Sequence record: OM386658.1
Length of the DNA stretch: 64,000 nt
DNA from: Escherichia phage vB_EcoM_ESCO32
Reading direction: 5' to 3' (one strand)
Shown: positions 3,766 through 35,745 of the stretch, piece by piece
How the letters are laid out: each line of letters starts with the position of its first letter
Numbering within the stretch: the first letter of the stretch is position 1
Program-made: the position numbers and the translations under genes
Notes under the pieces: model-generated
Seen by the model: only the letters and a program-made list of their open reading frames with translations
Databases searched by the model: none
Told to the model about the DNA's origin: nothing

Positions 3766-6540
3766 ATGGCTAAGAAAGAGTTGAGCTTCACTCCGACAGA
3801 AGAGCAAACAGCTATTAAGGAGGCTTTTCCAGACCATCGCTTTTTAACTATCCAAGCTAAATCTGGGTCAGGCAAAACGTCAACACTTTATTTGCTGGCT
3901 AACAGTACAGAAGATCGCATTCTTTACTTAGCTTTCAATAAAAGCATGGCAGAAGAAGCACGACGTAAGATGCCACTAAATGTAGAATGCCGTACATTGC
4001 ATTCTATTTGCTATCAATTCCTGGATCATCGTTTACGTGCAAAACTGTCACGACCAGAAGGACAGTATGTTAACGTTGCAGGTACAGGTAGTGAGATAGC
4101 AAAGAAATTTAAGATTAATAATCTTATTGATAAACGAGGGAAAACACTTTTAACTCGTGCTATGATCGGTTTAATGATCAAGCAAACCGTAGGTAAGTTT
4201 GAATTTTCGGATGATCCTTTTATCAGCCGTAAACATTTTCCTAGTGTACATCTTGCAGATATTAAAAGAAAAGGTATTAACGAACACAAACTAATTACAG
4301 AAGTAGTTAAGTATGCAAAACAATTGTGGCGAGAGCGCATCGATCCTAACACAGACACTTTGATGACGCATGACACCTATGTAAAATTGTTTGAATTATC
4401 TGGTGCTGATCTTGGTTATGATATTATTTTTGGTGATGAATTCCAGGATGTTAACCCTGCATTCTTATCTATTCTGCGAAATGCTAAATCTGCAAAACAA
4501 ATTGTGGTAGTGGGCGATGAATTCCAATGTGTGTCGGAAAACACGGTACTTAATACCGAGAATGGTCAGGTTACAATGAAAGACCTGCAAATCGGTGATA
4601 AGGTAGAGTCTTATTCTAATGGTAAAGTTACATTTAGAAAAGTAACAAATAAGACTTTATCTACACGTACAAAAGGTAGGAATATTATTACTGCCACAGG
4701 TAAAACTTTAGATATGACACATAACCATCGTATTTGGGCTTCATCCTATGTTCTGAAAGATGATCAGATGGTGGTATACCTAATGTGGAGGAAAGATTTA
4801 GGTTTCCGAGTAGGGATCACTAACAAATTCGATGATAAAGAAGGTTTTTCTAAACTGGGGCAACGTACACGTTCTGAAAAAGCACAGAAATTGTGGGTGT
4901 TGGATATTGTTGAAAACCGTGAAGCTGCTATGGAAAAAGAAATGGCATACAGTTTACAATATGGCATTCCTACTTGTGTATTTGAAGCAAGTTCACGCGG
5001 CATTAATCAAGAAAGGATCAATAACATTTTTGAACAATTCGGACAAAACGGTTTTAAACTTTTAGAGGATAAAGATTATCATTTTGCTTATCCACATTGG
5101 CACAGCATCAATTGTGCAGTAGATGAAAGAAAAATGTTAACAGTGACTTTGCGAGCACAAGGTTGTAAAGGAACACAAGTTAGTTTTGAGTGGACAGAAA
5201 GTGAAATGTCAATCTATGCTTCACTCATTGAAGCAGGTGTAAGCGTAAGTGTTGCTAAGTTGGAAGGTCGTTACCGTGTACGTAAATATTTCAATTCTTA
5301 TCGTGAAGCATTGAGTTTTGCACAAAAGATCCTTGAAATAGTGCCGTTTGCATCTTTAAAAGAATGCATGTCCTCTGTGAACACCGCCAAATATACTTTA
5401 ATTCCGGCGGCGGGTTTGTTTAAAGGCATGTCTGTGTTGGTAAAAGATGGTGATACTGTAACGGCAGAAGAAATTGTGGACATTGTAGATAGTGAAGGTA
5501 TCTATTATGATATTGAAGTAGAGGATACTGCTAACTTCTTTGGCAATGAAATTCTTAGCCACAACTGCATTTATCAATTTAGAGGTAGCTCTAATATGAT
5601 GATTGAAACAGCTAAGTATGGGGCAGAGCTTCCATTAACTGCTTGCTTCCGTTTTGGCCCCAAAGTGGCAAACATTGCCAATATGATTTTAAGCGATAAA
5701 GAACCTTTGCGTCATCCTTTGGTTGGTAAAGGCTTTGATACTGTAGTAGGTAGCTACAAATCAGATGTTGTAGACTATACAAAACCTTACACTATCATCT
5801 TTCGCAAGAATTTAACCTTGCTTATGGAGGCAATGGATCGTATTGCAGATGGGGAAGAAATTATTATTAACGTAGACACCAGGGATTTTATCTCTATGGT
5901 AGATAGTGTTAATGCTCTTCGGAGAGGAGATATTGAGAAAGTAAAACATGAAACTGTATTACCTTACGCAGACTGGGATGAATTTGTTGAGTGTGCAGAG
6001 GCTGATCCAGATGCTAAACGCTTGTTAAACATTGTAGTTTCTGGTAAGGCAAACACTATAGCACATACACTTAGAACGCATAGAAATTCTCCTACAGCAA
6101 AAGTCACACTGACTACAGCACATAAGTCTAAAGGTTTGGAGTGGGATCAGGTTATTGTTGCTAATGATTTTCCTTCCAATTATGATAAAAAGACTGGTGA
6201 GTGGGTAGGACTAGAAGAGGCAGAGCGAAACCTACTGTATGTAGCGCATACCCGTTGTGTTAAATGCTTACAATGGAACACAACCGTACAGGAGATTATA
6301 GATATCAACCGTGTTGCAACAGAGAAAGTACCAACAAGCACCACTTTACCGATCAATGGTATTAAACTTGGTGTATTTGGCGCTGGCACATCTCGAAAAG
6401 CTGTAGAAAAATTTGTTGCAGATTCTTTTGATGGTAACTATAATCATGCACAAGCATATGAGAGTTGGCTAGAGGAAGGTGAAGGTGATTTTTTAGGTGA
6501 AATAAATCTTTTACCAGACATAAATAAACTGGTAAACTAA
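3766..6540 (+). CDS. UvrD/Rep-like superfamily I DNA helicase, interrupted by an intein
   Basis: Walker A AKSGSGKTST; motif II GDEFQDV; motif III split as VVVGDEFQ | intein | CIYQFRGSS. Likely start is MAKKEL at 3766 right after the upstream stop. Confidence 0.7.
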   Translation: MAKKELSFTPTEEQTAIKEAFPDHRFLTIQAKSGSGKTSTLYLLANSTEDRILYLAFNKSMAEEARRKMPLNVECRTLHSICYQFLDHRLRAKLSRPEGQYVNVAGTGSEIAKKFKINNLIDKRGKTLLTRAMIGLMIKQTVGKFEFSDDPFISRKHFPSVHLADIKRKGINEHKLITEVVKYAKQLWRERIDPNTDTLMTHDTYVKLFELSGADLGYDIIFGDEFQDVNPAFLSILRNAKSAKQIVVVGDEFQCVSENTVLNTENGQVTMKDLQIGDKVESYSNGKVTFRKVTNKTLSTRTKGRNIITATGKTLDMTHNHRIWASSYVLKDDQMVVYLMWRKDLGFRVGITNKFDDKEGFSKLGQRTRSEKAQKLWVLDIVENREAAMEKEMAYSLQYGIPTCVFEASSRGINQERINNIFEQFGQNGFKLLEDKDYHFAYPHWHSINCAVDERKMLTVTLRAQGCKGTQVSFEWTESEMSIYASLIEAGVSVSVAKLEGRYRVRKYFNSYREALSFAQKILEIVPFASLKECMSSVNTAKYTLIPAAGLFKGMSVLVKDGDTVTAEEIVDIVDSEGIYYDIEVEDTANFFGNEILSHNCIYQFRGSSNMMIETAKYGAELPLTACFRFGPKVANIANMILSDKEPLRHPLVGKGFDTVVGSYKSDVVDYTKPYTIIFRKNLTLLMEAMDRIADGEEIIINVDTRDFISMVDSVNALRRGDIEKVKHETVLPYADWDEFVECAEADPDAKRLLNIVVSGKANTIAHTLRTHRNSPTAKVTLTTAHKSKGLEWDQVIVANDFPSNYDKKTGEWVGLEEAERNLLYVAHTRCVKCLQWNTTVQEIIDINRVATEKVPTSTTLPINGIKLGVFGAGTSRKAVEKFVADSFDGNYNHAQAYESWLEEGEGDFLGEINLLPDINKLVN
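4528..5565 (+). mobile_element. intein (about 346 aa) inside helicase motif III, with a possible degenerate endonuclease core
   Basis: Begins with Cys (CVSENTVLNTENGQVTMKDLQIGDKV, block A-like); block B-like TxxH (MTHNHRIW); ends YYDIEVEDTANFFGNEILSHN followed by +1 Cys. The flanking exteins rejoin into a canonical helicase motif III. Confidence 0.6.
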
Positions 6541-6550
6541 GGGGGTTAAA

Positions 6551-6802
6551 GTGGCAGGGTATCATTTGAAGGAGATTAGCAAAGAGGAATATGGTTCTGT
6601 TGCTAAGATTCAAGAAGAGCTTTATGAACTTCAAGATGCTATTGATCAAGATTGCAAGCTGATGCAACTTATTGAGTTATCAGATATTGTAGGCGCTGTT
6701 GAAGGTGTTCTTGAACAGCATTTTCCTGGTATGACGCTTCAAGATTTGATCACTATGTCAAACATTACTAAACGTGCATTCCGCAATGGAGGTCGATCAT
6801 GA
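6551..6802 (+). CDS. MazG-like nucleotide pyrophosphohydrolase domain protein (putative)
   Basis: 83 aa, GTG start; IQEELYELQDAIDQD...LIELSDIVGAVEGVL resembles the EExxE...E/D-x-x-D helical signature of small MazG-like proteins. Confidence 0.3.
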   Translation: MAGYHLKEISKEEYGSVAKIQEELYELQDAIDQDCKLMQLIELSDIVGAVEGVLEQHFPGMTLQDLITMSNITKRAFRNGGRS

Positions 6803-7371
6803 ATGTTGCAGTAATAGCTCAAGCTATTGATTACTATGGTCGATTTGCACAAATGTTAGAAGTTCCATATCTCGTGGATGCTGATATACTGGCGTATACA
6901 CTACCAGAAAATAAAGAGGATCGCCCATTAGGGCATCCTAACGGTAAATACTATGTAGCTAGTGCAGAACAATCTTTCCTGCAAATGGAGAAGGATGGTT
7001 TTGAATTTGCAGTAGGTAATCCGTATATGGCACTAACACCATGTTACCGCACAGAAGAAAATTTAGATGATACCCATTTTAATATTTTCTTGAAATTGGA
7101 GTTGATTGAGTTCTACCCTGATGCTACAATTGAAGAGTATGCTAACTCTATACGCTGTTTCTTCTCTACTTATTATGGAGTTAAAACATATTTAGTACCC
7201 ACTAATATTGGGGTTGACGTAGAGGATGAATATGGTTTAGAATTAGGTTCATTCGGTATGAGGGAGTCTCCAAGAGGTCATCCTTATATCTATGCAACAG
7301 GTATTGCGGAGCCTAGGGCTTCACTGGCAATAAACCGTGTTGTAAATAACATTCAAAGCATTAGCAAATAA
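6799..7371 (+). CDS. class II aminoacyl-tRNA synthetase-like minimal catalytic core (putative)
   Basis: CYRTEENLDDTHFNIFLKLELIEFY resembles class II motif 2 of the LysRS/EpmA group (FRNEG...HNPEFT..E.Y); ATGIAEPRASLAI resembles motif 3 (GxGxxxR). Only 190 aa, so truncated relative to real synthetases. Confidence 0.25.
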   Translation: MNVAVIAQAIDYYGRFAQMLEVPYLVDADILAYTLPENKEDRPLGHPNGKYYVASAEQSFLQMEKDGFEFAVGNPYMALTPCYRTEENLDDTHFNIFLKLELIEFYPDATIEEYANSIRCFFSTYYGVKTYLVPTNIGVDVEDEYGLELGSFGMRESPRGHPYIYATGIAEPRASLAINRVVNNIQSISK

Positions 7372-7383
7372 AAGGAGAATAGA

Positions 7384-7818
7384 ATGTCTATTGTGACACA
7401 AATGAAAGCAGATCGTATCTTAGCACGTACAACCGATAAGGGTGCTTTTGCTTTGTTAACTAATATTATTGGTGAGTTTGACCTTGCTCGTACTCAAAAG
7501 GCAAATCTAAACAAATCAGAAGACGATATTATGATTAACATTGTTAAGATTGGTATTGCACACGCTAAAGAGGAACTAGACTCACTTAAGAAAGTTAATG
7601 CCTCCATTAGCAAATGTGAGCGAGCTATGCGTGATATCACCACTCTGGAAAAATATTTGCCAGAAATGCTATCTGAAGATGATCTTCGAGCTATTGCTGA
7701 AGAATTTGCCTTGACAGGCAAGAAAATGCCAGATATGATGAAACACCTTAAAGCAGAGTATCCGAATCAATATGATGGAAAACTTGCTTCTACCATTGCA
7801 AAAGAAATTTTAAACTAA
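7384..7818 (+). CDS. GatB/YqeY-domain protein
   Basis: LEKYLPEMLSEDDLRAIAEE and MPDMMKHLKAEYPNQYDGKLASTIAKEIL match the conserved C-terminal blocks of YqeY/GatB-C domain proteins as I recall them (..EYLP.QLSEEEL.. and ..MGKVMG....GKADGK.V...VKE.L). Confidence 0.5.
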   Translation: MSIVTQMKADRILARTTDKGAFALLTNIIGEFDLARTQKANLNKSEDDIMINIVKIGIAHAKEELDSLKKVNASISKCERAMRDITTLEKYLPEMLSEDDLRAIAEEFALTGKKMPDMMKHLKAEYPNQYDGKLASTIAKEILN

Positions 7819-27536: not shown

Positions 27537-29309
27537 GTGTCTTATGTTGTAAATAAATATGGGTATAACATTGACCTAAGTCAAGAAGGACATACTGGGT
27601 GTCCTCGTTGTATGAAAGGAGGGCGTGATCGATCACAAAACAATTTGATGGTATATGGCTTAGATGCCGATGAAGACCATCGAGGCGCACATTGTTTTTC
27701 TTGTGGCTTTACTATCCCTGATCAAAAATGGTTAAATGCACACGGTGAAGAAATTGAAGAGGAGGATATCTTGGGTAGTGAGTTTAATCCAGAAGTACAT
27801 GATAAACTAAAAGCCAGCACTGGAACTAATCCAAAAGGTTATCGCGGTATTCGTGAAGATATCTCTAAACCTTTCGGTGTACGCTATATGTACGATGAAG
27901 CTACTGGCGAAGTAATTTCAACACTATACCCTACAACTAAAGATTACAATATTGCTGGGTATAAACAACGTATCGATCCAAAAGATTTTTCGCATCCTAT
28001 TGGTGAAACAGGAAAGGATTGTGATCTTTTTGGTGAGTTTAAATATCGTAACCACAGTGGTACTATTCTAATCGTTGGTGGTGAACACGATATGCTGGCT
28101 GCAACACAGATGCTAAAAGATTATAACAAGGGCGGTAAATATCCTGTTCCTGCTGTAGTGTCTGGTACTTGTGGCGAAACATCTCTGCATAAGCAGCTTC
28201 AACATCGTTATAAATTCTTAGATCAATTTAAAAAGATTGTTCTGTGTATGGATAATGATGAAGCTGGACGTGCAGCAGTTGAGAAATGTGTTAAAATCTT
28301 ACCACGTAATAAAGTTTACGTGATGGAACTAACGGATGTTAAAGATCCTAACCAGGCACTAGTAGAAGGAAAAATTGATCATTTTATTGATCGCTTTTTC
28401 AAAGCTAAATTGTACACACCTGCTGGTGTTTACGCTTCTAACGTACTGTATGAAGCAGCCTTGGAATGCCTGGAAGCTAAAATGATCACCCTTCCTCCAT
28501 TCATGCGTGTTGCTTCTAATATGTTAGGTGGAGGCTTGGTAGAAGAAGAAATTACTGTTATACTTGCAAAAACAAGTATCGGTAAGACACTGTTGGTTAA
28601 CGAGATTACGAAACACATTATTCTTGCACACCCAGAACATACTCTTGGTATTTTATCTTTGGAGGCAACGTATAAGAAGTATTCTCGTAACTTGCTGTCT
28701 TCATTCTTGCATATCCCTCTTCACCGTAAAACAAAAGAAGAGAAGGAAAAGATTTTAAAAGATAATGAAGAAAAGATTCGTGATTTTTACGAACGAGAAG
28801 ATGGAACACCACGTTTCTATGTTTGTGATGATCGTGGGGCTAACGTAGATGTGATTAAAGAGAAGGTTCTGGAAATGATTATTTATTTCGGAGTAACCAT
28901 TCTTGTTATCGACCCTTATTCTGACTTGCTTTCTGGTATGGACGTGTCACAACAAGAGGAACTTGCGACGTGGCTGAAACGCATTATGAAAGAGTACGCA
29001 ATAACCATTGTTGTAATTTCACACGTTAAAAAGTCTTCTAACAATAGTAATGAACATATTGTAGAAGATGATGCAATGGGTAGTAGCTTCCTTGCTAAAG
29101 GTGCTGGTATCACAATTGCGCTGGAGCGTGATAAACAAGCTGAAGATCCTATGGAACGTAACCGCACATATTGCTACATTCTAAAGAACCGTGAGTTCTC
29201 AGAGACTGGTGCAGCAGGTAGTTTCTTCTATGAGATTAAAACAGCTACACTTCACGATTACGATCAATACACAAGTAACCCAGAAAATATTTCTGCTGGT
29301 TCTTATTAA
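27537..29309 (+). CDS. bifunctional DNA primase / DnaB-like helicase (T7 gp4-like)
   Basis: N-terminal zinc ribbon CPRCMKGG...HCFSCGF, a TOPRIM-like middle region, and C-terminal helicase with Walker A ILAKTSIGKT and Walker B-like ILVIDPYSD. GTG start after taggaga. Confidence 0.8.
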   Translation: MSYVVNKYGYNIDLSQEGHTGCPRCMKGGRDRSQNNLMVYGLDADEDHRGAHCFSCGFTIPDQKWLNAHGEEIEEEDILGSEFNPEVHDKLKASTGTNPKGYRGIREDISKPFGVRYMYDEATGEVISTLYPTTKDYNIAGYKQRIDPKDFSHPIGETGKDCDLFGEFKYRNHSGTILIVGGEHDMLAATQMLKDYNKGGKYPVPAVVSGTCGETSLHKQLQHRYKFLDQFKKIVLCMDNDEAGRAAVEKCVKILPRNKVYVMELTDVKDPNQALVEGKIDHFIDRFFKAKLYTPAGVYASNVLYEAALECLEAKMITLPPFMRVASNMLGGGLVEEEITVILAKTSIGKTLLVNEITKHIILAHPEHTLGILSLEATYKKYSRNLLSSFLHIPLHRKTKEEKEKILKDNEEKIRDFYEREDGTPRFYVCDDRGANVDVIKEKVLEMIIYFGVTILVIDPYSDLLSGMDVSQQEELATWLKRIMKEYAITIVVISHVKKSSNNSNEHIVEDDAMGSSFLAKGAGITIALERDKQAEDPMERNRTYCYILKNREFSETGAAGSFFYEIKTATLHDYDQYTSNPENISAGSY

Positions 29310-29805: not shown

Positions 29806-32800
29806 ATGGGAGCTTTTACTTTCGACATTGAAAGTAACAACTTGCTTAATGACGAAAGTGTAGATTACTTGGCAAGTCCATATCGTTTAAAAGATAGTTT
29901 TGCAATGCACTGTATTGTGTGCGAAAGTCATGATACTGGAGAGATTATTGCTTTCCATGATGGTGATAAATATCTTTTCGATGGTCGTCCGTATGTTGAG
30001 ACTGACGGAAAGTATGAATACCGACTGGAGGAATATGAGCATTTAGAATATACCCATTTCCCTCTTAAAGATTTTCCTGATTTTGTAAATGGAACAGGTA
30101 AATTTAAAGGTAATTCAAACTATAAAATTACCAAAGTAGTTGGACATAACATCATTAACTTTGACTTACTGGCAATTAAATTATTTTTTAAACTCAACTA
30201 CAGTATTAAGTACAATACTTGGGGTAATAGTAACATTGAAATTTGTGATACTATGATCTTAAGTAAGACACTAAACCCTGATCGCTTCGGTGGTCATAGT
30301 CTGGCAGAGTTATCTAAGAAGGCTGGAGGGGATGTTAAAATTGATTTTAGAAAAAACATTCCTGAAACTGAAAGATTTAAAACATTTGCAGCAGATATGC
30401 TGTATTACTGTATTTACGATAACAAAGCTAACACCGCAGTGTTCCGTTATTTGATGGAAGAGTGGGGTGATTATAATAAGTGGTCTGAACCATTTAACTT
30501 AGAACAACGTGTAGCTGATATTATTACACGTCAAGAGCACCGTGGCTTTGCTTTCAATATGAAACAAGCAGAAGATAATATTCGTGATCTGGATGCTCGA
30601 ATGGAAGCATGTCGTTTAGAGGCAGAACCTGTGCTACCTCCTAAACCTGCTACTAAAGGTTATTTGAAATCATTCATTCCACCTAAACTACAGTTTAAAA
30701 AGAATGGTGAACCTTCAAGTAACATGATAAAGTTTGCAGAGAAACATTCTGGTGAACTTGTACAAAAAGAAGATGGTTGGTGGCTATTTGCATTAGGTAA
30801 AGAGTTTAAACTACCTATTCCAGCAGAAGAACCTATTTGTGATCCTACAGTACCTGCTACTTTAGACGACACTACACATATTAAAAACTGGTTAGTTGGT
30901 TTAGGTTGGAGTCCATCTGAATATAAAGATAAAGATATCACTCTTAAATCTGGCACTAAGATTAAGAAAGATGAAGCACAGATGGAGAAAGCTATTCGTG
31001 ACTATGTTGATCAAACGTTAGCATCTAATTTCTGCCAGGACAGATGTGATCATCTGGAGTGCACACCAGAAACTTTGGAATGGAAACTAAGAGATCGTAT
31101 TGCTAAAGCTAAAGGTCGTGGTGTTAAAGTGCTTACTAACCCTTCCTTTACAAAAGGGCAAGAGAAAGATATTTGTCCTAACTTGGAAGCACTAGGTGAA
31201 AAGTTTCCTTATGCTACGCAGATTGTGCAGTATCTTACGTATAAACACCGTAGGAACTCTATTCTAGGGGGTGGTGCTGATTGGGAAGAAGATGAAGAGG
31301 ATTATGATAAAGGTTATCTGGCAGCAGTAAGGGCTGATGGTCGTATACCAACTCCTGCTGCAACGTGTGATGCAGCTACGTCTCGTATGAAACATAGGTT
31401 AGTAGCAAATATCCCACGTGTAACATCTCTGTACGGATATGAAATGCGTAACTTATTTGGTGTAGAAGTTCCAAAATACTTCCAAATTGGTTATGATTTT
31501 GATTCTCTTGAGGCAAAAATAGAATCACACTACTGTGTACCTATGGATGCACAAGCACTAACCCGTAAAGGTTGGGTTGGTTATCACGATCTACAAGAAG
31601 GGGATGAAATCTTAGGATATAACCCAGAAACAGGACTTAAAGAATGGACTAAAGTAAAAGGTAAGGTCTTCTATAAAAATAGTAAGACGTTTGAGATTAA
31701 AGGAAAATCCCATACTTACCGTGCAACAGCAGATCACCGTTGGTATGTTAATACCCGTAGTAAAGGGAATACTTATGTGCCTAAAGTCAGAACAACTGCC
31801 GAGCTTTGCACAGGAGATAATATTATTTGTAATGCTCCATTTAACATGGAACAAGATCAGGTAAATAGTTTAACTTCTGTTCAACAAGGTAAATGGGATG
31901 TTCCGTGGGTAGAGCGTGTAGTTAATATGTCTCATGCCGAGCGTGTAGCTTTCTTGGAAGGTTTCTTGATTGCAGATGGTTACTGGCATGAACATAAACA
32001 AAAACCTGTTTGGCGTTGGGCGCAGAACCCAGGTGAACTTTTTGAAGCAGCTTTAACTGCCTCGTACCTGGTGCATGGAGGCAATATCTCTGTAGCTTTC
32101 AATACAAAAGAGCAGAAAGTAAAAGTGGCAACATTGGCTAACCGCTCTCACATTCCTGTTCAAAGTTTGACTATTGAAGAGTGGGGTGTAGAGGATGTTT
32201 GGTGTCCACAAACAGAACTTGGTACGTGGGTCATGCGTCAGAAAGACTGCATTACCATCACAGGAAACTGTTGGCGGTACGAGCAGGAACCACACGAATA
32301 TTGTAATGCTCTATTATTGGAAAAACCTAATGATGTTCATACAATGATGGCTCGACGTATTTCTGACACTATTGGTCGTAAGTTTGAACGAAGCCCTGCT
32401 AAATCTGTTAAGTATGGTATTACTTATGGTGCTCAAGCTGCAAAAGTAGCAAAAACTATAGGTAGTGATATGTATACCGGACAGCTTGTATACGATGCTT
32501 TCTGGGAAGCTGCAAAACCTCTTGCGCTTCTTAAAGAACGTCTGCATGACTTTTGGGTTAAAACAGGTAAGAAATACATTCTGGGTATTGATGGTAGGAA
32601 AGTACCTACACGATCTGCACACGCAATACTTAACTCTCTGTTCCAGAGTGGTGGTGTTATTTGTGCAAAAAGAGCAATGGTTATCTACGACGATCTTATC
32701 GAAGAAGAAGGATTAGCTGTTGACTTTTTTGTTGATGACTGGAAAAATAAGTCATTCGTTCAACAAATGATTGCATATCACGATGAAGCACAGCTTGAAG

Positions 32801-33120
32801 TAACTCGTGATCTGGTGCATTTTAAATGGTTCTCTAAAGAATCTTTAGGTTGGACTCAAGTTGATGATCCAGAAGAACAAAAGAAAATTGATAAAGAATG
32901 TTTGGATAAAGTTAATGCCTGGAAAGAAGAGGAAGAGAAACGTACTGGCAAGATTTGGGCTAACGTACATGAATCTCCGAAAGGTGGTTGGTTTACAGCC
33001 TACAGTCGTGCTGGAGAATTAGCATCTATCGCTGTTAATAAAGCTGGTGAGTATTACAATCTTAATGTACCTCTCACTGCTGGTTACGATGTTGGTAACT
33101 CATGGGCCAGTTGTCATTAG
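29806..33120 (+). CDS. family A DNA polymerase (T7 gp5-like) with 3'-5' exonuclease domain, interrupted by an intein
   Basis: Exo I FTFDIESNNL; RFGGHSLAEL; motif A region GYDFDSLEAKIESHY; motif B RSPAKSVKYGITYGAQ; ILGIDGRKVPTRSAHAILNSLFQSGG; C-terminal GYDVGNSWASCH. These parallel T7 gp5 as I recall it. Confidence 0.85.
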   Translation: MGAFTFDIESNNLLNDESVDYLASPYRLKDSFAMHCIVCESHDTGEIIAFHDGDKYLFDGRPYVETDGKYEYRLEEYEHLEYTHFPLKDFPDFVNGTGKFKGNSNYKITKVVGHNIINFDLLAIKLFFKLNYSIKYNTWGNSNIEICDTMILSKTLNPDRFGGHSLAELSKKAGGDVKIDFRKNIPETERFKTFAADMLYYCIYDNKANTAVFRYLMEEWGDYNKWSEPFNLEQRVADIITRQEHRGFAFNMKQAEDNIRDLDARMEACRLEAEPVLPPKPATKGYLKSFIPPKLQFKKNGEPSSNMIKFAEKHSGELVQKEDGWWLFALGKEFKLPIPAEEPICDPTVPATLDDTTHIKNWLVGLGWSPSEYKDKDITLKSGTKIKKDEAQMEKAIRDYVDQTLASNFCQDRCDHLECTPETLEWKLRDRIAKAKGRGVKVLTNPSFTKGQEKDICPNLEALGEKFPYATQIVQYLTYKHRRNSILGGGADWEEDEEDYDKGYLAAVRADGRIPTPAATCDAATSRMKHRLVANIPRVTSLYGYEMRNLFGVEVPKYFQIGYDFDSLEAKIESHYCVPMDAQALTRKGWVGYHDLQEGDEILGYNPETGLKEWTKVKGKVFYKNSKTFEIKGKSHTYRATADHRWYVNTRSKGNTYVPKVRTTAELCTGDNIICNAPFNMEQDQVNSLTSVQQGKWDVPWVERVVNMSHAERVAFLEGFLIADGYWHEHKQKPVWRWAQNPGELFEAALTASYLVHGGNISVAFNTKEQKVKVATLANRSHIPVQSLTIEEWGVEDVWCPQTELGTWVMRQKDCITITGNCWRYEQEPHEYCNALLLEKPNDVHTMMARRISDTIGRKFERSPAKSVKYGITYGAQAAKVAKTIGSDMYTGQLVYDAFWEAAKPLALLKERLHDFWVKTGKKYILGIDGRKVPTRSAHAILNSLFQSGGVICAKRAMVIYDDLIEEEGLAVDFFVDDWKNKSFVQQMIAYHDEAQLEVTRDLVHFKWFSKESLGWTQVDDPEEQKKIDKECLDKVNAWKEEEEKRTGKIWANVHESPKGGWFTAYSRAGELASIAVNKAGEYYNLNVPLTAGYDVGNSWASCH
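31534..32268 (+). mobile_element. intein (about 245 aa) after polymerase motif A, with LAGLIDADG-like motif
   Basis: Starts CVPMDAQALTRKGWVGYHDLQEGDEIL (block A-like); TADHRW (block B TxxH); AFLEGFLIADGYW (LAGLIDADG-like); ends ...CITITGN followed by +1 Cys. The region between motif A and the HTMMA block is about 245 aa longer than the T7 gp5 equivalent. Confidence 0.55.
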
Positions 33121-33149
33121 TCTAACATATTGTTTTATAAGGAGTTTTT

Positions 33150-33737
33150 ATGGTATATGGTCATGGTATTTTTGATGGAGATTTTACTGTAAGATCTCCT
33201 AGAGGAACTATGCACCCTGCTTATATGAAATGGATGTCTATGTTGGGGAGGTGTTACTCCCCTTGTCAACAAGAACGTGATCCTTGTTATAATGGGGTGA
33301 CAGTTTGTGAAGAATGGAAGTTGTTCTCCAATTTCTATTCCTGGTTGCAAACTTGGGATGACTGGGAAAACTTAGAACTTGATAAAGATATTATAGGAGG
33401 GAGAGTTTACTCTCCCAATACCTGTCTTTTAGTAACAGGAGATCTTAATAAGTTCTTAGCTTATAGAGTAAGTAAAAGATCTCATGGGACTATGGTGGGA
33501 TGTAGTTACGAGAAAGATCGTAAAAAGTATAAAGCCAACATAAAAGTAGGCGGTCGCATGAAAACGCTGGGACGTTTTAATACTGAAATTGAAGCGCATC
33601 TTTGTTGGTTGAAGGCTAAGGCAGAACAGCTTACAAAATTCTTTGAAACTGAAGATGAAAGAGTTGTTCCACATCTTAAAGCACTATATAATGAAATGCT
33701 TGAGCATGTAGAACAACACAAAGAGTGGACACGATAG
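33150..33737 (+). CDS. AP2-domain DNA-binding protein, putative free-standing homing endonuclease-associated
   Basis: GCSYEKDRKKYKANIKVGGRMKTLGRFNTEIEAHLCWLKA matches the AP2 pattern (G.SY.K...KY.A.I...GK...LG.F.TEEEA..AY) often found in phage HNH/AP2 homing endonucleases; sits directly downstream of the polymerase. Confidence 0.4.
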   Translation: MVYGHGIFDGDFTVRSPRGTMHPAYMKWMSMLGRCYSPCQQERDPCYNGVTVCEEWKLFSNFYSWLQTWDDWENLELDKDIIGGRVYSPNTCLLVTGDLNKFLAYRVSKRSHGTMVGCSYEKDRKKYKANIKVGGRMKTLGRFNTEIEAHLCWLKAKAEQLTKFFETEDERVVPHLKALYNEMLEHVEQHKEWTR

Positions 33738-33745
33738 GAGAAAAT

Positions 33746-34339
33746 ATGAATATTGAAGATCAAAAAGTACGAGCTTTAGAAGTATTACGTATGTGCCAAC
33801 TGGTAGATCCGTTTGCAATTGTAGCTGGCGGCGCTGTACGTGACTGGCGATTAGAGAAACCTGCGCAAGATATTGACATTTACTTGCGTATGCCTAACCA
33901 CAATACACTCGTATTAGTAGAGAAATTTTTGATGTTGGGTGTTGGTGCACGTAATGTTAAACAACTTACTAAGCAAACAGAACACACTTATGCCGAACTA
34001 CCACATTTGAAATGGGTATTTGAAGCATACTATAAAGATCTTAAGTTTAACTTTATGATCATGGAAGAAGGTGTACGCAGTGAAATCGTATGGAACTTTG
34101 ATGTGGCTATTTGCCTGTGTTACTGGGATGGTCAAAATTATGTATATCATCCAGACTTTGAATTTGCACTGAAAACTAATATTTGTACTATTAATCACCG
34201 ATACACAGGTAAGGAAGCACACGTCCGTAAAATGGCAGAACGTTTCCCTATGTTCCGCTTTGTAAAAGACGTTTTCATTCCCAAAGAACCAGAAGTACGT
34301 ACACTGGATTCATTTAACAACGAAGAATTTAAGATTTAA
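33746..34339 (+). CDS. minimal Pol-beta superfamily nucleotidyltransferase (CCA-adding enzyme head-domain-like)
   Basis: VAGGAVRDWRLEKPAQDIDIYL closely matches the GGAVRD...D-x-D signature of tRNA nucleotidyltransferase and poly(A) polymerase heads; protein is only about 197 aa. Confidence 0.45.
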   Translation: MNIEDQKVRALEVLRMCQLVDPFAIVAGGAVRDWRLEKPAQDIDIYLRMPNHNTLVLVEKFLMLGVGARNVKQLTKQTEHTYAELPHLKWVFEAYYKDLKFNFMIMEEGVRSEIVWNFDVAICLCYWDGQNYVYHPDFEFALKTNICTINHRYTGKEAHVRKMAERFPMFRFVKDVFIPKEPEVRTLDSFNNEEFKI

Positions 34340-34342
34340 GTG

Positions 34343-34372
34343 TTGACAAACATTATAATTATGTGTTATTAT
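34343..34372 (+). promoter_or_regulatory. sigma70-like promoter candidate
   Basis: TTGACA (34343-34348) followed at 17-18 nt by TTATTA/TATTAT, just upstream of the 34383 start. Confidence 0.35.
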
Positions 34373-34382
34373 GAGGACTTGA

Positions 34383-34781
34383 ATGACAGATAATCGTTCT
34401 AAAATCTTAGTCGAGACGTTCTACAGTAGAGAAACTAACCGTCTTGAGCTAACTAAAAAAGATGTTGAACCTCAAGATAATACCTTTTTTATTCAAATAC
34501 TATGTCTCTTTGGTGGATACAACCGTTTAACAGTGCGGGTAGAAAACAAAGAGATATCTGAAACCACTATCACAAAACGTGAGCTTATGTTACTACAGGA
34601 TACAATACGAGATGTTTTGGATAATCCTGGAAAAGCAAAAGTAATTAACCTTGGTGGAGAAAAGATACAAATCCTCCATTTCGAAAGTGGTGAAATAGGA
34701 TTTGGTATTGGTCTTGGTAAATACCTGTTGGAAGAAACTGACGCTACTCTTTTACGAGAGTTTTGTGTTAAAGTAATGTAA
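34383..34781 (+). CDS. hypothetical protein
   Basis: 132 aa ORF. Confidence 0.4.
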   Translation: MTDNRSKILVETFYSRETNRLELTKKDVEPQDNTFFIQILCLFGGYNRLTVRVENKEISETTITKRELMLLQDTIRDVLDNPGKAKVINLGGEKIQILHFESGEIGFGIGLGKYLLEETDATLLREFCVKVM

Positions 34782-34797
34782 TTATAGAGGAGAATTT

Positions 34798-35745
34798 ATG
34801 CCAGTAATTAATTCTGAAATCGACCGTCGTACTAAAAAAGAAGCATTCTGGGCTGAAGGTATCGTTGAATATGTCAAACTGGATAAGTTTGATGAAATGA
34901 AAGTCTCTTATATTAAGGTTGCAGGTCAGCCAGATAAGAAAATTGAATCAACTCACAAAGCATCTCTGCTTATTAAAGAGAAAGGTGCTAGTGCTGATGA
35001 TAAAGGTGTTTGGGTTAGCCTAGGTGAAGTTAAACTGCATCCAGAACATGAAAACCTGCAAGTTAAAGATGGTGACAAGTGGGTTACTATCGAAAAAGGT
35101 GTAGAACTAACTATGGATGTTAAACCTTCTGAATGGAATGGCAAAACATACTACAATTCCTCTAAAGGTAAAATCACTATTCTTTCAACAGAAGGTGTTC
35201 AGCAAGCACAATCTTCTTCAAAAGGTGGAAATAAGCCATCTAATAACGAAGGTAGCAAGCCTAACTACAAAAAACGTGATACCGTAGGGATTGAAACAGG
35301 ACACGCTGTAAACGGCGCTCTGGAGCTTCTACGTGCTGGTGTGAAAGGTGATGCTTTCGACTTGGCTGGTGTGGTACAATCTGCAACTGTTACTCTGAAA
35401 GCAGAAATTGCTAAAGATCGTGGCGTTGATGTGACTGACTATGATCTTGGTGCTTCAGTTGGACACGCAATTCTTAACGCTTGTCGTGATCATACAGGTA
35501 AAACTGTAACGGCAGAAGAGATTATTGAAGCTGCTCGTGAAGTTCTTGCTTTGTCTGATAAAGTAGCTGCTGCTATCCGTGGAATGTCTACCCCAGTACA
35601 AGAAGTTAAGAAAGAAACTAAAAAAGTAGAGAAGAAAGAGCCAGCACCGAAAGAACCAGAACCTGTTGTTCAAGATTTCGATGATGATATCCCATTTGCT
35701 CCTATTGGTTTGCAGTATGGTCGAAACTTCCTGCACTGTTTCTAA
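34798..35745 (+). CDS. single-stranded DNA-binding protein-like (acidic C-terminal tail)
   Basis: Ends with the acidic, aromatic-terminated tail DFDDDIPF, identical in form to the SSB C-terminal protein-interaction tail. Central Gly/Ser/Asn-rich linker. The N-terminal OB fold is not verified. Confidence 0.45.
   Translation: MPVINSEIDRRTKKEAFWAEGIVEYVKLDKFDEMKVSYIKVAGQPDKKIESTHKASLLIKEKGASADDKGVWVSLGEVKLHPEHENLQVKDGDKWVTIEKGVELTMDVKPSEWNGKTYYNSSKGKITILSTEGVQQAQSSSKGGNKPSNNEGSKPNYKKRDTVGIETGHAVNGALELLRAGVKGDAFDLAGVVQSATVTLKAEIAKDRGVDVTDYDLGASVGHAILNACRDHTGKTVTAEEIIEAAREVLALSDKVAAAIRGMSTPVQEVKKETKKVEKKEPAPKEPEPVVQDFDDDIPFAPIGLQYGRNFLHCF

Follow-up and report, generated by a model that had tools for sequence, protein, structure and literature searches.

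Homing endonucleases of the IPA-HNH family were described in 2023, with Gp59 of Vibrio phage ICP1 as founding member together with Gp115/116 and Gp209 (Barth et al. 2023, PMC10448857). Their N-terminal domain is related to HNH but has diverged too far for Pfam to recognize it, and an AP2 domain lies at the C-terminus; 29% of their genes are located near DNA polymerase genes, a habit described in the same work (PMC10448857). The family falls within the AP2-HNH endonucleases of Magnani et al. 2004. The locus analyzed here lies in a stretch of 64,000 nucleotides (nt) from Escherichia phage vB_EcoM_ESCO32 (record OM386658.1), termed the window below, in which the gene of a family A DNA polymerase (pol) is followed by two open reading frames (ORFs), ORF A and ORF B. 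The account that we favor, and that we hold to be fairly probable as a whole, is that a selfish IPA-HNH homing gene (ORF A) and an unrelated nucleotidyltransferase consisting of a catalytic head only (ORF B) stand side by side after polA. Both genes are already found in GenBank at 97-100% identity, annotated as an HNH endonuclease and a nucleotidyltransferase, and are in this respect ordinary and known. The two ORFs, and the peptide strings quoted for them in a preliminary description of this DNA, lie where that description had placed them, beside an intein-bearing polymerase.

ORF A is matched by PHROG 953 ("HNH endonuclease"; 3e-76) and shares 34% identity over 156 residues with ICP1 Gp59 (BLASTP, E 1e-21); the tblastn match in ICP1 falls on the coding sequence annotated "Previously called: GP59". 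The alignment of the two proteins includes the core LDKDI...Y.P..C.LV....N.FL. As in the described family, a putative, divergent HNH-like domain, invisible to Pfam, occupies the N-terminal part and an AP2 domain the C-terminal part, and the gene directly follows a DNA polymerase gene, an arrangement observed in three genera (ORF A in the window, its homologue in Phapecoctavirus EF1-1, and Gp59 in ICP1). The abundance in Rheinheimera Barba phages and Pseudomonas KIL3-like phages is also shared. ORF A differs in being shorter than Gp59 (195 versus 272 amino acids, aa) and in lacking the N-terminal extension of many homologues. As judged from its sequence, ORF A is a member of the IPA-HNH family in a typical location.

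The homologue search for ORF A yielded 58 proteins, and an alignment of 44, reaching down to 24% identity, was used for further comparison. Pfam AP2 hits 12 of these 44 homologues (best 6.8e-8), and the family profile, when compared with the PDB, had plant AP2/ERF domains as its top matches (WRI1, 1.9e-4). The AP2 fold at the C-terminus of ORF A was confirmed both by profile and by predicted structure. Since no Pfam PF00847 threshold was reached directly, its membership in AP2 rests on fold and on transitive homology. The check by hidden Markov models (HMMs) that the preliminary description had proposed, with AP2 PF00847 and HNH families, was thus borne out for AP2 through the homologues and the fold, but for neither by a direct Pfam match of ORF A.

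The distribution of ORF A among phages is patchy. Thirty-seven phage records, including several from Phapecoctavirus, contain the gene, whereas the ORF B gene (at least 95% identity) was detected in 55; homologues of ORF A occupy 2497 places in 1459 phage records, with up to seven copies per genome. Phage phi92 lacks ORF A and carries a 137-nt spacer between pol and the nucleotidyltransferase gene (positions 6322-6458 of its locus, L002, equivalent to 33121-33745 of the window). This spacer retains the ribosome-binding site and ATG of ORF A, together with a decayed copy of its last ~90 nt, and is the remnant of an internal deletion of ORF A; in phage outra, no more than the final 60 nt of the gene are left. 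Both remnants represent the decay stage in the life cycle of a homing element.

The carriers fall into two allelic groups by the opening 71 nt of ORF A, and the switch between the alleles coincides with the six silent changes in the last five codons of pol, a serine codon switch (AGT/TCT) among them. These codons mark the left edge of a mosaic tract that extends into the 71 nt. In the segment 33106-33220, the first 71 nt of ORF A show 63% identity in the cross-genus comparison, and in close relatives the flanks on either side are 95-98% identical. This mosaic may represent a recombination or co-conversion tract, or it may reflect variation of the target site. The body of ORF A shares 86.5% nucleotide identity with EF1-1, versus 72-79% for the pol exteins, and the ORF B protein is 37% identical to its EF1-1 counterpart. 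Patchy presence, remnants, mosaic boundary, cross-genus similarity and copy number make a selfish, free-standing homing element the best reading of ORF A, and we consider this reading very probable from the comparative data. In mixed infections, the ORF A protein would nick or cut the genome of a phage lacking ORF A near the 3' end of polA, and recombinational repair from the ORF A-bearing genome would then copy ORF A along with some of the flanking sequence; pol is the probable homing-target neighborhood. The footprint observed in the population is the one predicted by this homing model. The AP2-domain homing-endonuclease-like gene of the preliminary description is therefore upheld and, given the presence and absence of the gene, the phi92 remnant and the cross-genus identity, can be narrowed to a putative IPA-HNH gene.

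The residues G6, W28, W56, F62, D78, K79, D80, Y87 and N100 are invariant in the 44-sequence alignment. In the predicted model, strands are located at residues 76-78 and 93-95, with D78-K79 at the end of the first strand, and a helix at residues 97-103 bears N100; on this model, the layout of residues 76-103 is the beta-beta-alpha arrangement of His-Me finger nucleases. An ungapped match, not statistically supported, places D78-K79, V95-T96 and N100 of ORF A on D74-H75, V91-T92 and N96 of I-HmuI from phage SPO1. We take D74 and N96 of I-HmuI to be metal ligands and H75 to be the general base. Common to ORF A and I-HmuI (SPO1 gp31.2), a structurally characterized HNH_3 homing endonuclease, are the identical 22-residue spacing between the D and the N, the beta-beta-alpha structure, predicted in the case of ORF A, and the association with a phage DNA polymerase gene. 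In contrast, I-HmuI is encoded in an intron, has the general-base His and contacts DNA by NUMOD-type modules; ORF A is a free-standing gene, carries an AP2 domain, has a Lys that is invariant in its family and gave no Pfam HNH_3 or NUMOD match.

Several results weigh against a mobile nuclease. Direct Pfam and NCBIfam scans of ORF A returned nothing (no Pfam family at E<=1, neither HNH_3, PF13392, nor AP2), the hhalign comparison with I-HmuI was not significant, and the position of the catalytic His (H75 of I-HmuI) is occupied by K79, with Lys in all 44 homologues. Moreover, the 83.5% identity of ORF A between genera equals that of the whole pol protein (83.5%). The main rival reading of ORF A is a domesticated, sequence-specific DNA-binding protein without nuclease function, such as a CasPR-like transcriptional repressor or a protein that regulates the pol-ORF B operon, and we consider it improbable. 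The replacement of the HNH catalytic His by Lys in every family member would fit such a protein, as would the structure searches with the ORF A model, in which no nuclease was matched, and there is a precedent for phage AP2 domains acting purely as DNA-binding silencers in the AP2-containing CasPR anti-CRISPRs (bioRxiv 10.64898/2026.02.23.707548). The CapR zinc-finger domains of CasPR are, however, absent from ORF A, and the invariance of D78, K79, D80 and N100 in sequences as distant as 24% identity, at the spacing of the I-HmuI active site, argues for a conserved catalytic center rather than decay. The patchiness, the remnants, the multi-copy genomes and the cross-genus transfer are, in addition, the behavior of a selfish element.

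Turning to the second gene, ORF B is 100% identical to phi92 gp158 and is a core gene of this phage genus. Residues 7-193 are matched by PHROG 1614 ("nucleotidyltransferase"; 2e-34), phrog_10174 also matches (2.2e-26), and homologues carry the precomputed Pfam label PF26128. A word-indexed homologue search gave two proteins only, and an exhaustive HMMER search, used instead, gave 997 representative clusters. Almost all of those listed encode proteins of 175-240 aa, so that the short length is the stable architecture of a large family and not a truncation. Among one genome per bacterial or archaeal species (185,579 genomes), only 12 loci of the family were found, all on contigs of metagenome-assembled genomes, and the family is therefore essentially phage-restricted.

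Some homologues (P0094, P0118 and P0133; P0108 and P0155) carry N-terminal extensions of 60-213 aa, of at least two recurring types, one of which is duplicated in P0118; the Pfam scan was negative for all extension types. The possibility that the homologues of 261-400 aa are endonuclease fusions was rejected, their extensions having no Pfam match and not being of the HNH-AP2 kind. Two GenBank records (MG065645 and MG065639, "Campylobacter phage A145/A150") contain a nucleotidyltransferase gene ~99% identical to that of E. coli phages, which suggests mislabelled hosts or contamination in the records.

Conservation within the ORF B family was assessed in an alignment of 80 diverse homologues with a mean column identity of 25%. 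The residues G28, G29, W34, D42 and D44 are invariant, and Q6, A10, L14, R32, D33, Y82 and K162 are conserved in at least 90% of the sequences. The predicted fold is that of a class II head domain, and, in structure as in sequence, the nearest relatives are without exception class II tRNA nucleotidyltransferases or poly(A) polymerases; the fold matches also include antibiotic and protein nucleotidyltransferases of the Pol-beta superfamily, and the PolX-type score is far lower. The head signature of tRNA nucleotidyltransferase/poly(A) polymerase, noted in the preliminary description for a protein of only ~197 aa, was thus correct at the level of the fold. Since the GG...DxD residues are invariant, ORF B is probably an active terminal nucleotidyltransferase, which would catalyze a two-metal transfer of nucleotides to a 3'-OH.

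The relationship to CCA-adding enzymes was examined against E. coli Cca, both with one sequence alone and with a 107-sequence profile; global mode failed. The hhalign comparison of the ORF B family with the Cca profile gave an E of 3.6e-4, with residues 24-67 as the sole significant part. Within motif A, G28-G29-A-V-R32-D33 followed by D42-I-D44 aligns to E. coli Cca, and ORF B clearly shares the catalytic head of CCA-adding enzymes. Beyond residues 24-67, a greedy extension is colinear with Cca at low confidence. In this low-confidence alignment, N117-F118-D119 stands opposite motif B (RRD), the motif by which class II enzymes recognize sugar and triphosphate and which is not conserved here (family consensus FxxSIC, no conserved basic residues), and YTGKEAHVRKMAERF stands opposite motif D (EDxxR; FGEDPLRVLRVARF), which is not conserved either. 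Conservation in the motif-D segment, Y153-TGKEAHVRKMAERF, is limited to K162 (100% basic), R166 (88%) and F167, while the position of E157 holds an acidic residue in 62% of the homologues.

Profile searches gave a similar picture. Pfam PolyA_pol (PF01743), another check proposed at the outset, matched the motif A region (residues 26-81, profile positions 3-59 of 126), but at 19.1 bits remained below its cut-off of 23. The NCBIfam CCA equivalogs were far below theirs (NF009814, 15 versus 290 bits; TIGR03671, 13.9 versus 281.3). Against the PDB, the narrow ORF B profile found nothing relevant, and the broader profile aligned motif A only, to CCA-adding enzymes. The neck, body and tail domains are missing (197 aa versus about 400-470), with no PF12627 or PF01966; relatives of E. 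coli Cca combine PF01743 with PF12627 and, in some cases, PF01966. Since several defining features of the family were looked for and are lacking, ORF B was not filed as a CCA-adding enzyme. In comparison with the class II tRNA nucleotidyltransferases and poly(A) polymerases, it comprises the head only, scores below threshold, is phage-restricted and resides in replication modules. The stand-alone "CCA-adding enzyme head domain" of Streptococcus pneumoniae (NP_344798.1; 2la3) is different, being bacterial and chromosomal with 9% identity, and no sequence-level match of ORF B to it was found. PADLOC defense models gave nothing meaningful for either protein and no defense-system nucleotidyltransferase match for ORF B.

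The genomic context of the ORF B family was analyzed in 80 related loci taken from viral contigs, whose ORFs were clustered; dereplication at 60% identity left 43 lineages. A primase/helicase or PolA homologue was located within 6 kb in 30 of the 43 lineages and within three genes in 23, and the ORF B homologue shared its strand with the replication neighbors in 102 of 104 cases. The gene order varies: the nucleotidyltransferase gene may follow pol, precede primase/helicase or lie between the two. Other recurrent neighbors are a 5'-3' exonuclease, DNA ligase, an SSB-like protein, homing endonucleases, a sigma factor and the PHROG 335 "phosphatase". Several unrelated lineages (IMG/VR loci L058, L059 and L068) have a PHROG 335 gene of ~170 aa at a distance of 2-4 genes downstream from the nucleotidyltransferase. 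In Bordetella phage BB8, the homologue is placed between primase/helicase and DNA polymerase. According to PMC7693777, the putative "tRNA nucleotidyltransferases" of Pectobacterium Autographiviridae (PP47 gp28 and others) have the same placement; these are likewise small nucleotidyltransferases between primase/helicase and polymerase in T7-like phages, the likeness being one of description. In ICP1, the ORF B homologue is not beside the polymerase.

Genes for tRNA were present within 6 kb of ORF B homologues in only 5 of 60 loci, and none were found in the window or in the whole records of BB8 and Vibrio phage 1.264.O. The occurrence of members in phages without tRNA genes argues that the family does not serve to mature phage-encoded tRNAs. 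Other possibly tRNA-related accessory genes of the window lie ~26 kb upstream of the locus: a 190-aa ORF (6799-7371), called "histidyl tRNA synthetase" in relatives, for which the Pfam scan was negative here, and a 144-aa ORF (7384-7818), called "tRNA amidotransferase" in relatives and YqeY-like according to Pfam (5.3e-7).

In six syntenic lineages, identity to the window was 32-52% for ORF B, versus 70-88% for primase/helicase, 71-86% for PolA and 59-62% for the SSB-like protein. As far as these divergences indicate, ORF B is an accessory gene that evolves rapidly, not a core subunit of the replisome. The 132-aa ORF that follows ORF B also diverges rapidly (30-56% identity in loci L006-L016).

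Several observations weigh against our reading of ORF B. The likely third catalytic carboxylate, E93 in strand 88-96, is acidic in 70% of the 80 homologues; the gene evolves much faster than its neighbors; and the literature searched contains no assay or functional data on any member of the family. Synteny with replication genes is, moreover, no proof of a replication role, since the same region of T7-like phages also holds accessory anti-host genes, as stated in a figure legend of PMC7693777.

As to the substrate of ORF B, RNA 3' ends, including damaged acceptor ends of host tRNAs, are the leading single candidate, which we put forward tentatively: the characterized relatives all act on RNA 3' ends, and the mode of evolution resembles that of a host-interaction gene. 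A nucleic-acid end linked to the T7-type replication module is a weaker candidate, and the remaining probability falls to other substrates. The preliminary description had envisaged a stripped-down CCA-adding enzyme that repairs tRNA 3' ends, a possible but doubtful function; ORF B would then put back C, C or A on tRNAs, of host or phage, whose acceptor ends had been trimmed by host nucleases or toxins. In its favor, the closest relatives are all class II enzymes of RNA 3' ends, and motif A has the GGxVRD...DxD form that such enzymes typically show; the acceptor end of tRNA is a known target of immunity (PMC12851939), jumbo phages possess full-length CCA-adding enzymes (PMC7824862), the fast evolution fits a host-interaction gene, and homologues are labelled putative tRNA nucleotidyltransferases in GenBank and in PMC7693777. 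Conversely, neither RRD nor EDxxR, the latter being the protein template for C/A selection, is conserved, the tRNA-binding body and tail are missing, the CCA equivalogs score only 14-15 bits against cut-offs of 281-290, linkage to tRNA genes is confined to the few loci mentioned, with members in phages devoid of such genes, and the E. coli host already has Cca. The proposal thus finds no support in the features examined. Without the motifs that choose C or A and the domains that hold the tRNA, ORF B is not a canonical CCA-adding enzyme; since these parts have been lost and the family is syntenic with replication modules, the other option of the same description, a nucleotidyltransferase with a different substrate, is about equally likely.

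One such option is a T7-type replication accessory: a terminal transferase that would work without a template at the 3' ends of primers or DNA, for instance to extend or cap primers or to protect the ends of the genome; we regard this as rather unlikely. Extended to the whole family of ~1000 clusters, it would make ORF B and its homologues a previously unrecognized, non-tRNA accessory of the T7-type replisome, with such terminal transferase activity toward primers, DNA 3' ends or some other substrate linked to replication, a proposal to which we give similarly little credence. It would explain why these genes travel on the same strand with primase/helicase and PolA in dozens of unrelated lineages, including phages free of tRNA genes. 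However, PolX-type matches lie far below those to class II RNA enzymes, the protein evolves two to three times faster than the adjacent replisome proteins, which is unusual for a core part, the ICP1 homologue is away from the polymerase, and there is no known precedent. It is less plausible still that ORF B is catalytically dead or is not a nucleic-acid enzyme, serving for example as a small-molecule or protein nucleotidyltransferase or as a structural partner. The incomplete conservation of the third carboxylate would be in line with this, the conserved face of the N-terminal helix (Q6, A10, L14) suggests a protein-protein interface, and antibiotic and protein nucleotidyltransferases are among the fold matches; yet motif A is invariant at its two adjacent glycines and at both aspartates, enzymes of RNA 3' ends are by far the nearest relatives, and no defense-system nucleotidyltransferase model was matched. 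A probably active terminal nucleotidyltransferase remains our reading of ORF B.

The window derives from a Justusliebigvirus (phi92-like) coliphage. In the 6 kb around the locus, identity amounts to 98.2% with Escherichia phage PaulScherrer (Bas60) and to 97-98% with phi92, alia, PD06 and further phages of this genus. In the window, primase/helicase occupies 27537-29309 and the 132-aa ORF 34383-34781. The order annotated in relatives is primase/helicase, a small ORF, DNA polymerase, HNH endonuclease (a slot filled in some relatives only), nucleotidyltransferase, a 132-aa ORF, a 315-aa ORF and a Dam-like methyltransferase, after which tail genes follow on the opposite strand. The 315-aa ORF (34798-35745) is labelled SSB in some relatives, and PHROG SSB families match its C-terminal end only. 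It contains DFDDDIPF 15 residues before the C-terminus (…DFDDDIPFAPIGLQYGRNFLHCF), not at the very end; in E. coli SSB, this string forms the C-terminal tip.

The coordinates of the features are collected in Table 1. The stop codon of pol and the start of ORF A are separated by a 29-nt gap, in which the promoter scan found no promoter-like site. The overlap of the ORF B Shine-Dalgarno sequence with the ORF A stop codon points to co-transcription of ORF A and ORF B, possibly with coupled translation. The sequence AGGAGAAAATATG at the ribosome-binding site of ORF B is also kept in phi92, which lacks ORF A. For ORF B, the GenBank record of PaulScherrer uses a GTG at 33725, overlapping ORF A, whereas RefSeq relatives agree with the ATG at 33746; given this agreement, the conservation of Met1 in 77 of 80 homologues and the perfect AGGAG 5 nt upstream, the ATG is the supported start and the GTG is not. 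Between pol and the ORF B stop codon, no terminator-like site was found; the best promoter match in the region comes immediately downstream of that codon, upstream of both the 132-aa and the SSB-like ORFs, and probably starts the next transcription unit. Together, these two findings suggest that pol, ORF A and ORF B are transcribed as a single unit. The Rfam scan of the whole window yielded zero RNA families, and the GC composition of ORF A is not distinct from that of its flanks.

Table 1. Positions of the pol, ORF A and ORF B features in the window
Feature	Position	Strand	Basis or remarks
Family A DNA polymerase gene (pol)	29806..33120	+	Pfam DNA_pol_A 7.7e-11
Last five pol codons	33106..33120	+	6 nt differ from alia, all silent: GCC/GCG, AGT/TCT, CAT/CAC, TAG/TGA
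ORF A Shine-Dalgarno, AAGGAG	33139..33144	+	5 nt before ORF A start (sequence)
ORF A, 195 aa, putative free-standing IPA-HNH homing endonuclease gene	33150..33737	+	PHROG 953, ICP1 Gp59 homology
HNH-like core of ORF A, residues 76-103 (E76 L77 D78 K79 D80 ... N100)	33375..33458	+	Invariant columns, predicted beta-beta-alpha
AP2-type DNA-binding domain of ORF A, residues 117-165	33498..33644	+	Three strands and one helix
ORF B Shine-Dalgarno, AGGAG	33736..33740	+	Overlaps ORF A stop codon 33735-33737 (sequence)
ORF B, 197 aa, stand-alone class II-type nucleotidyltransferase, catalytic head only	33746..34339	+	
ORF B motif A, GGAVRDW...DIDI, residues 28-44	33827..33877	+	
Best sigma-70-like promoter match of the region	34343..34372	+	TTGACA, 18 nt, extended -10 TG-TATTAT, 11/12 matches (promoter scan)

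The polymerase gene itself carries a 735-nt intein at 31537-32271, and the PaulScherrer record annotates an intein-containing DNA polymerase precursor; in alia the intein is absent and the polymerase is 245 aa shorter. A Pfam scan of the 245-aa intein was without any match. The intein was found in 33 phage records spanning Justusliebigvirus and Phapecoctavirus, and its nucleotide identity to that of EF1-1 is 96.1%, versus 72.2% and 78.9% for the two pol exteins, which points to recent horizontal spread.

For ORF A, the invariant change from His to Lys in the core poses a small, testable question in nuclease mechanism. Of greater consequence is the biochemical role of the family to which ORF B belongs, a very large, phage-specific and probably active group of nucleotidyltransferases stably embedded in replication clusters. 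If ORF B repairs tRNA ends, it would constitute a counter-defense against the growing list of immune systems that target tRNA tails; if it acts on replication intermediates, it would represent a new accessory of the replisome.

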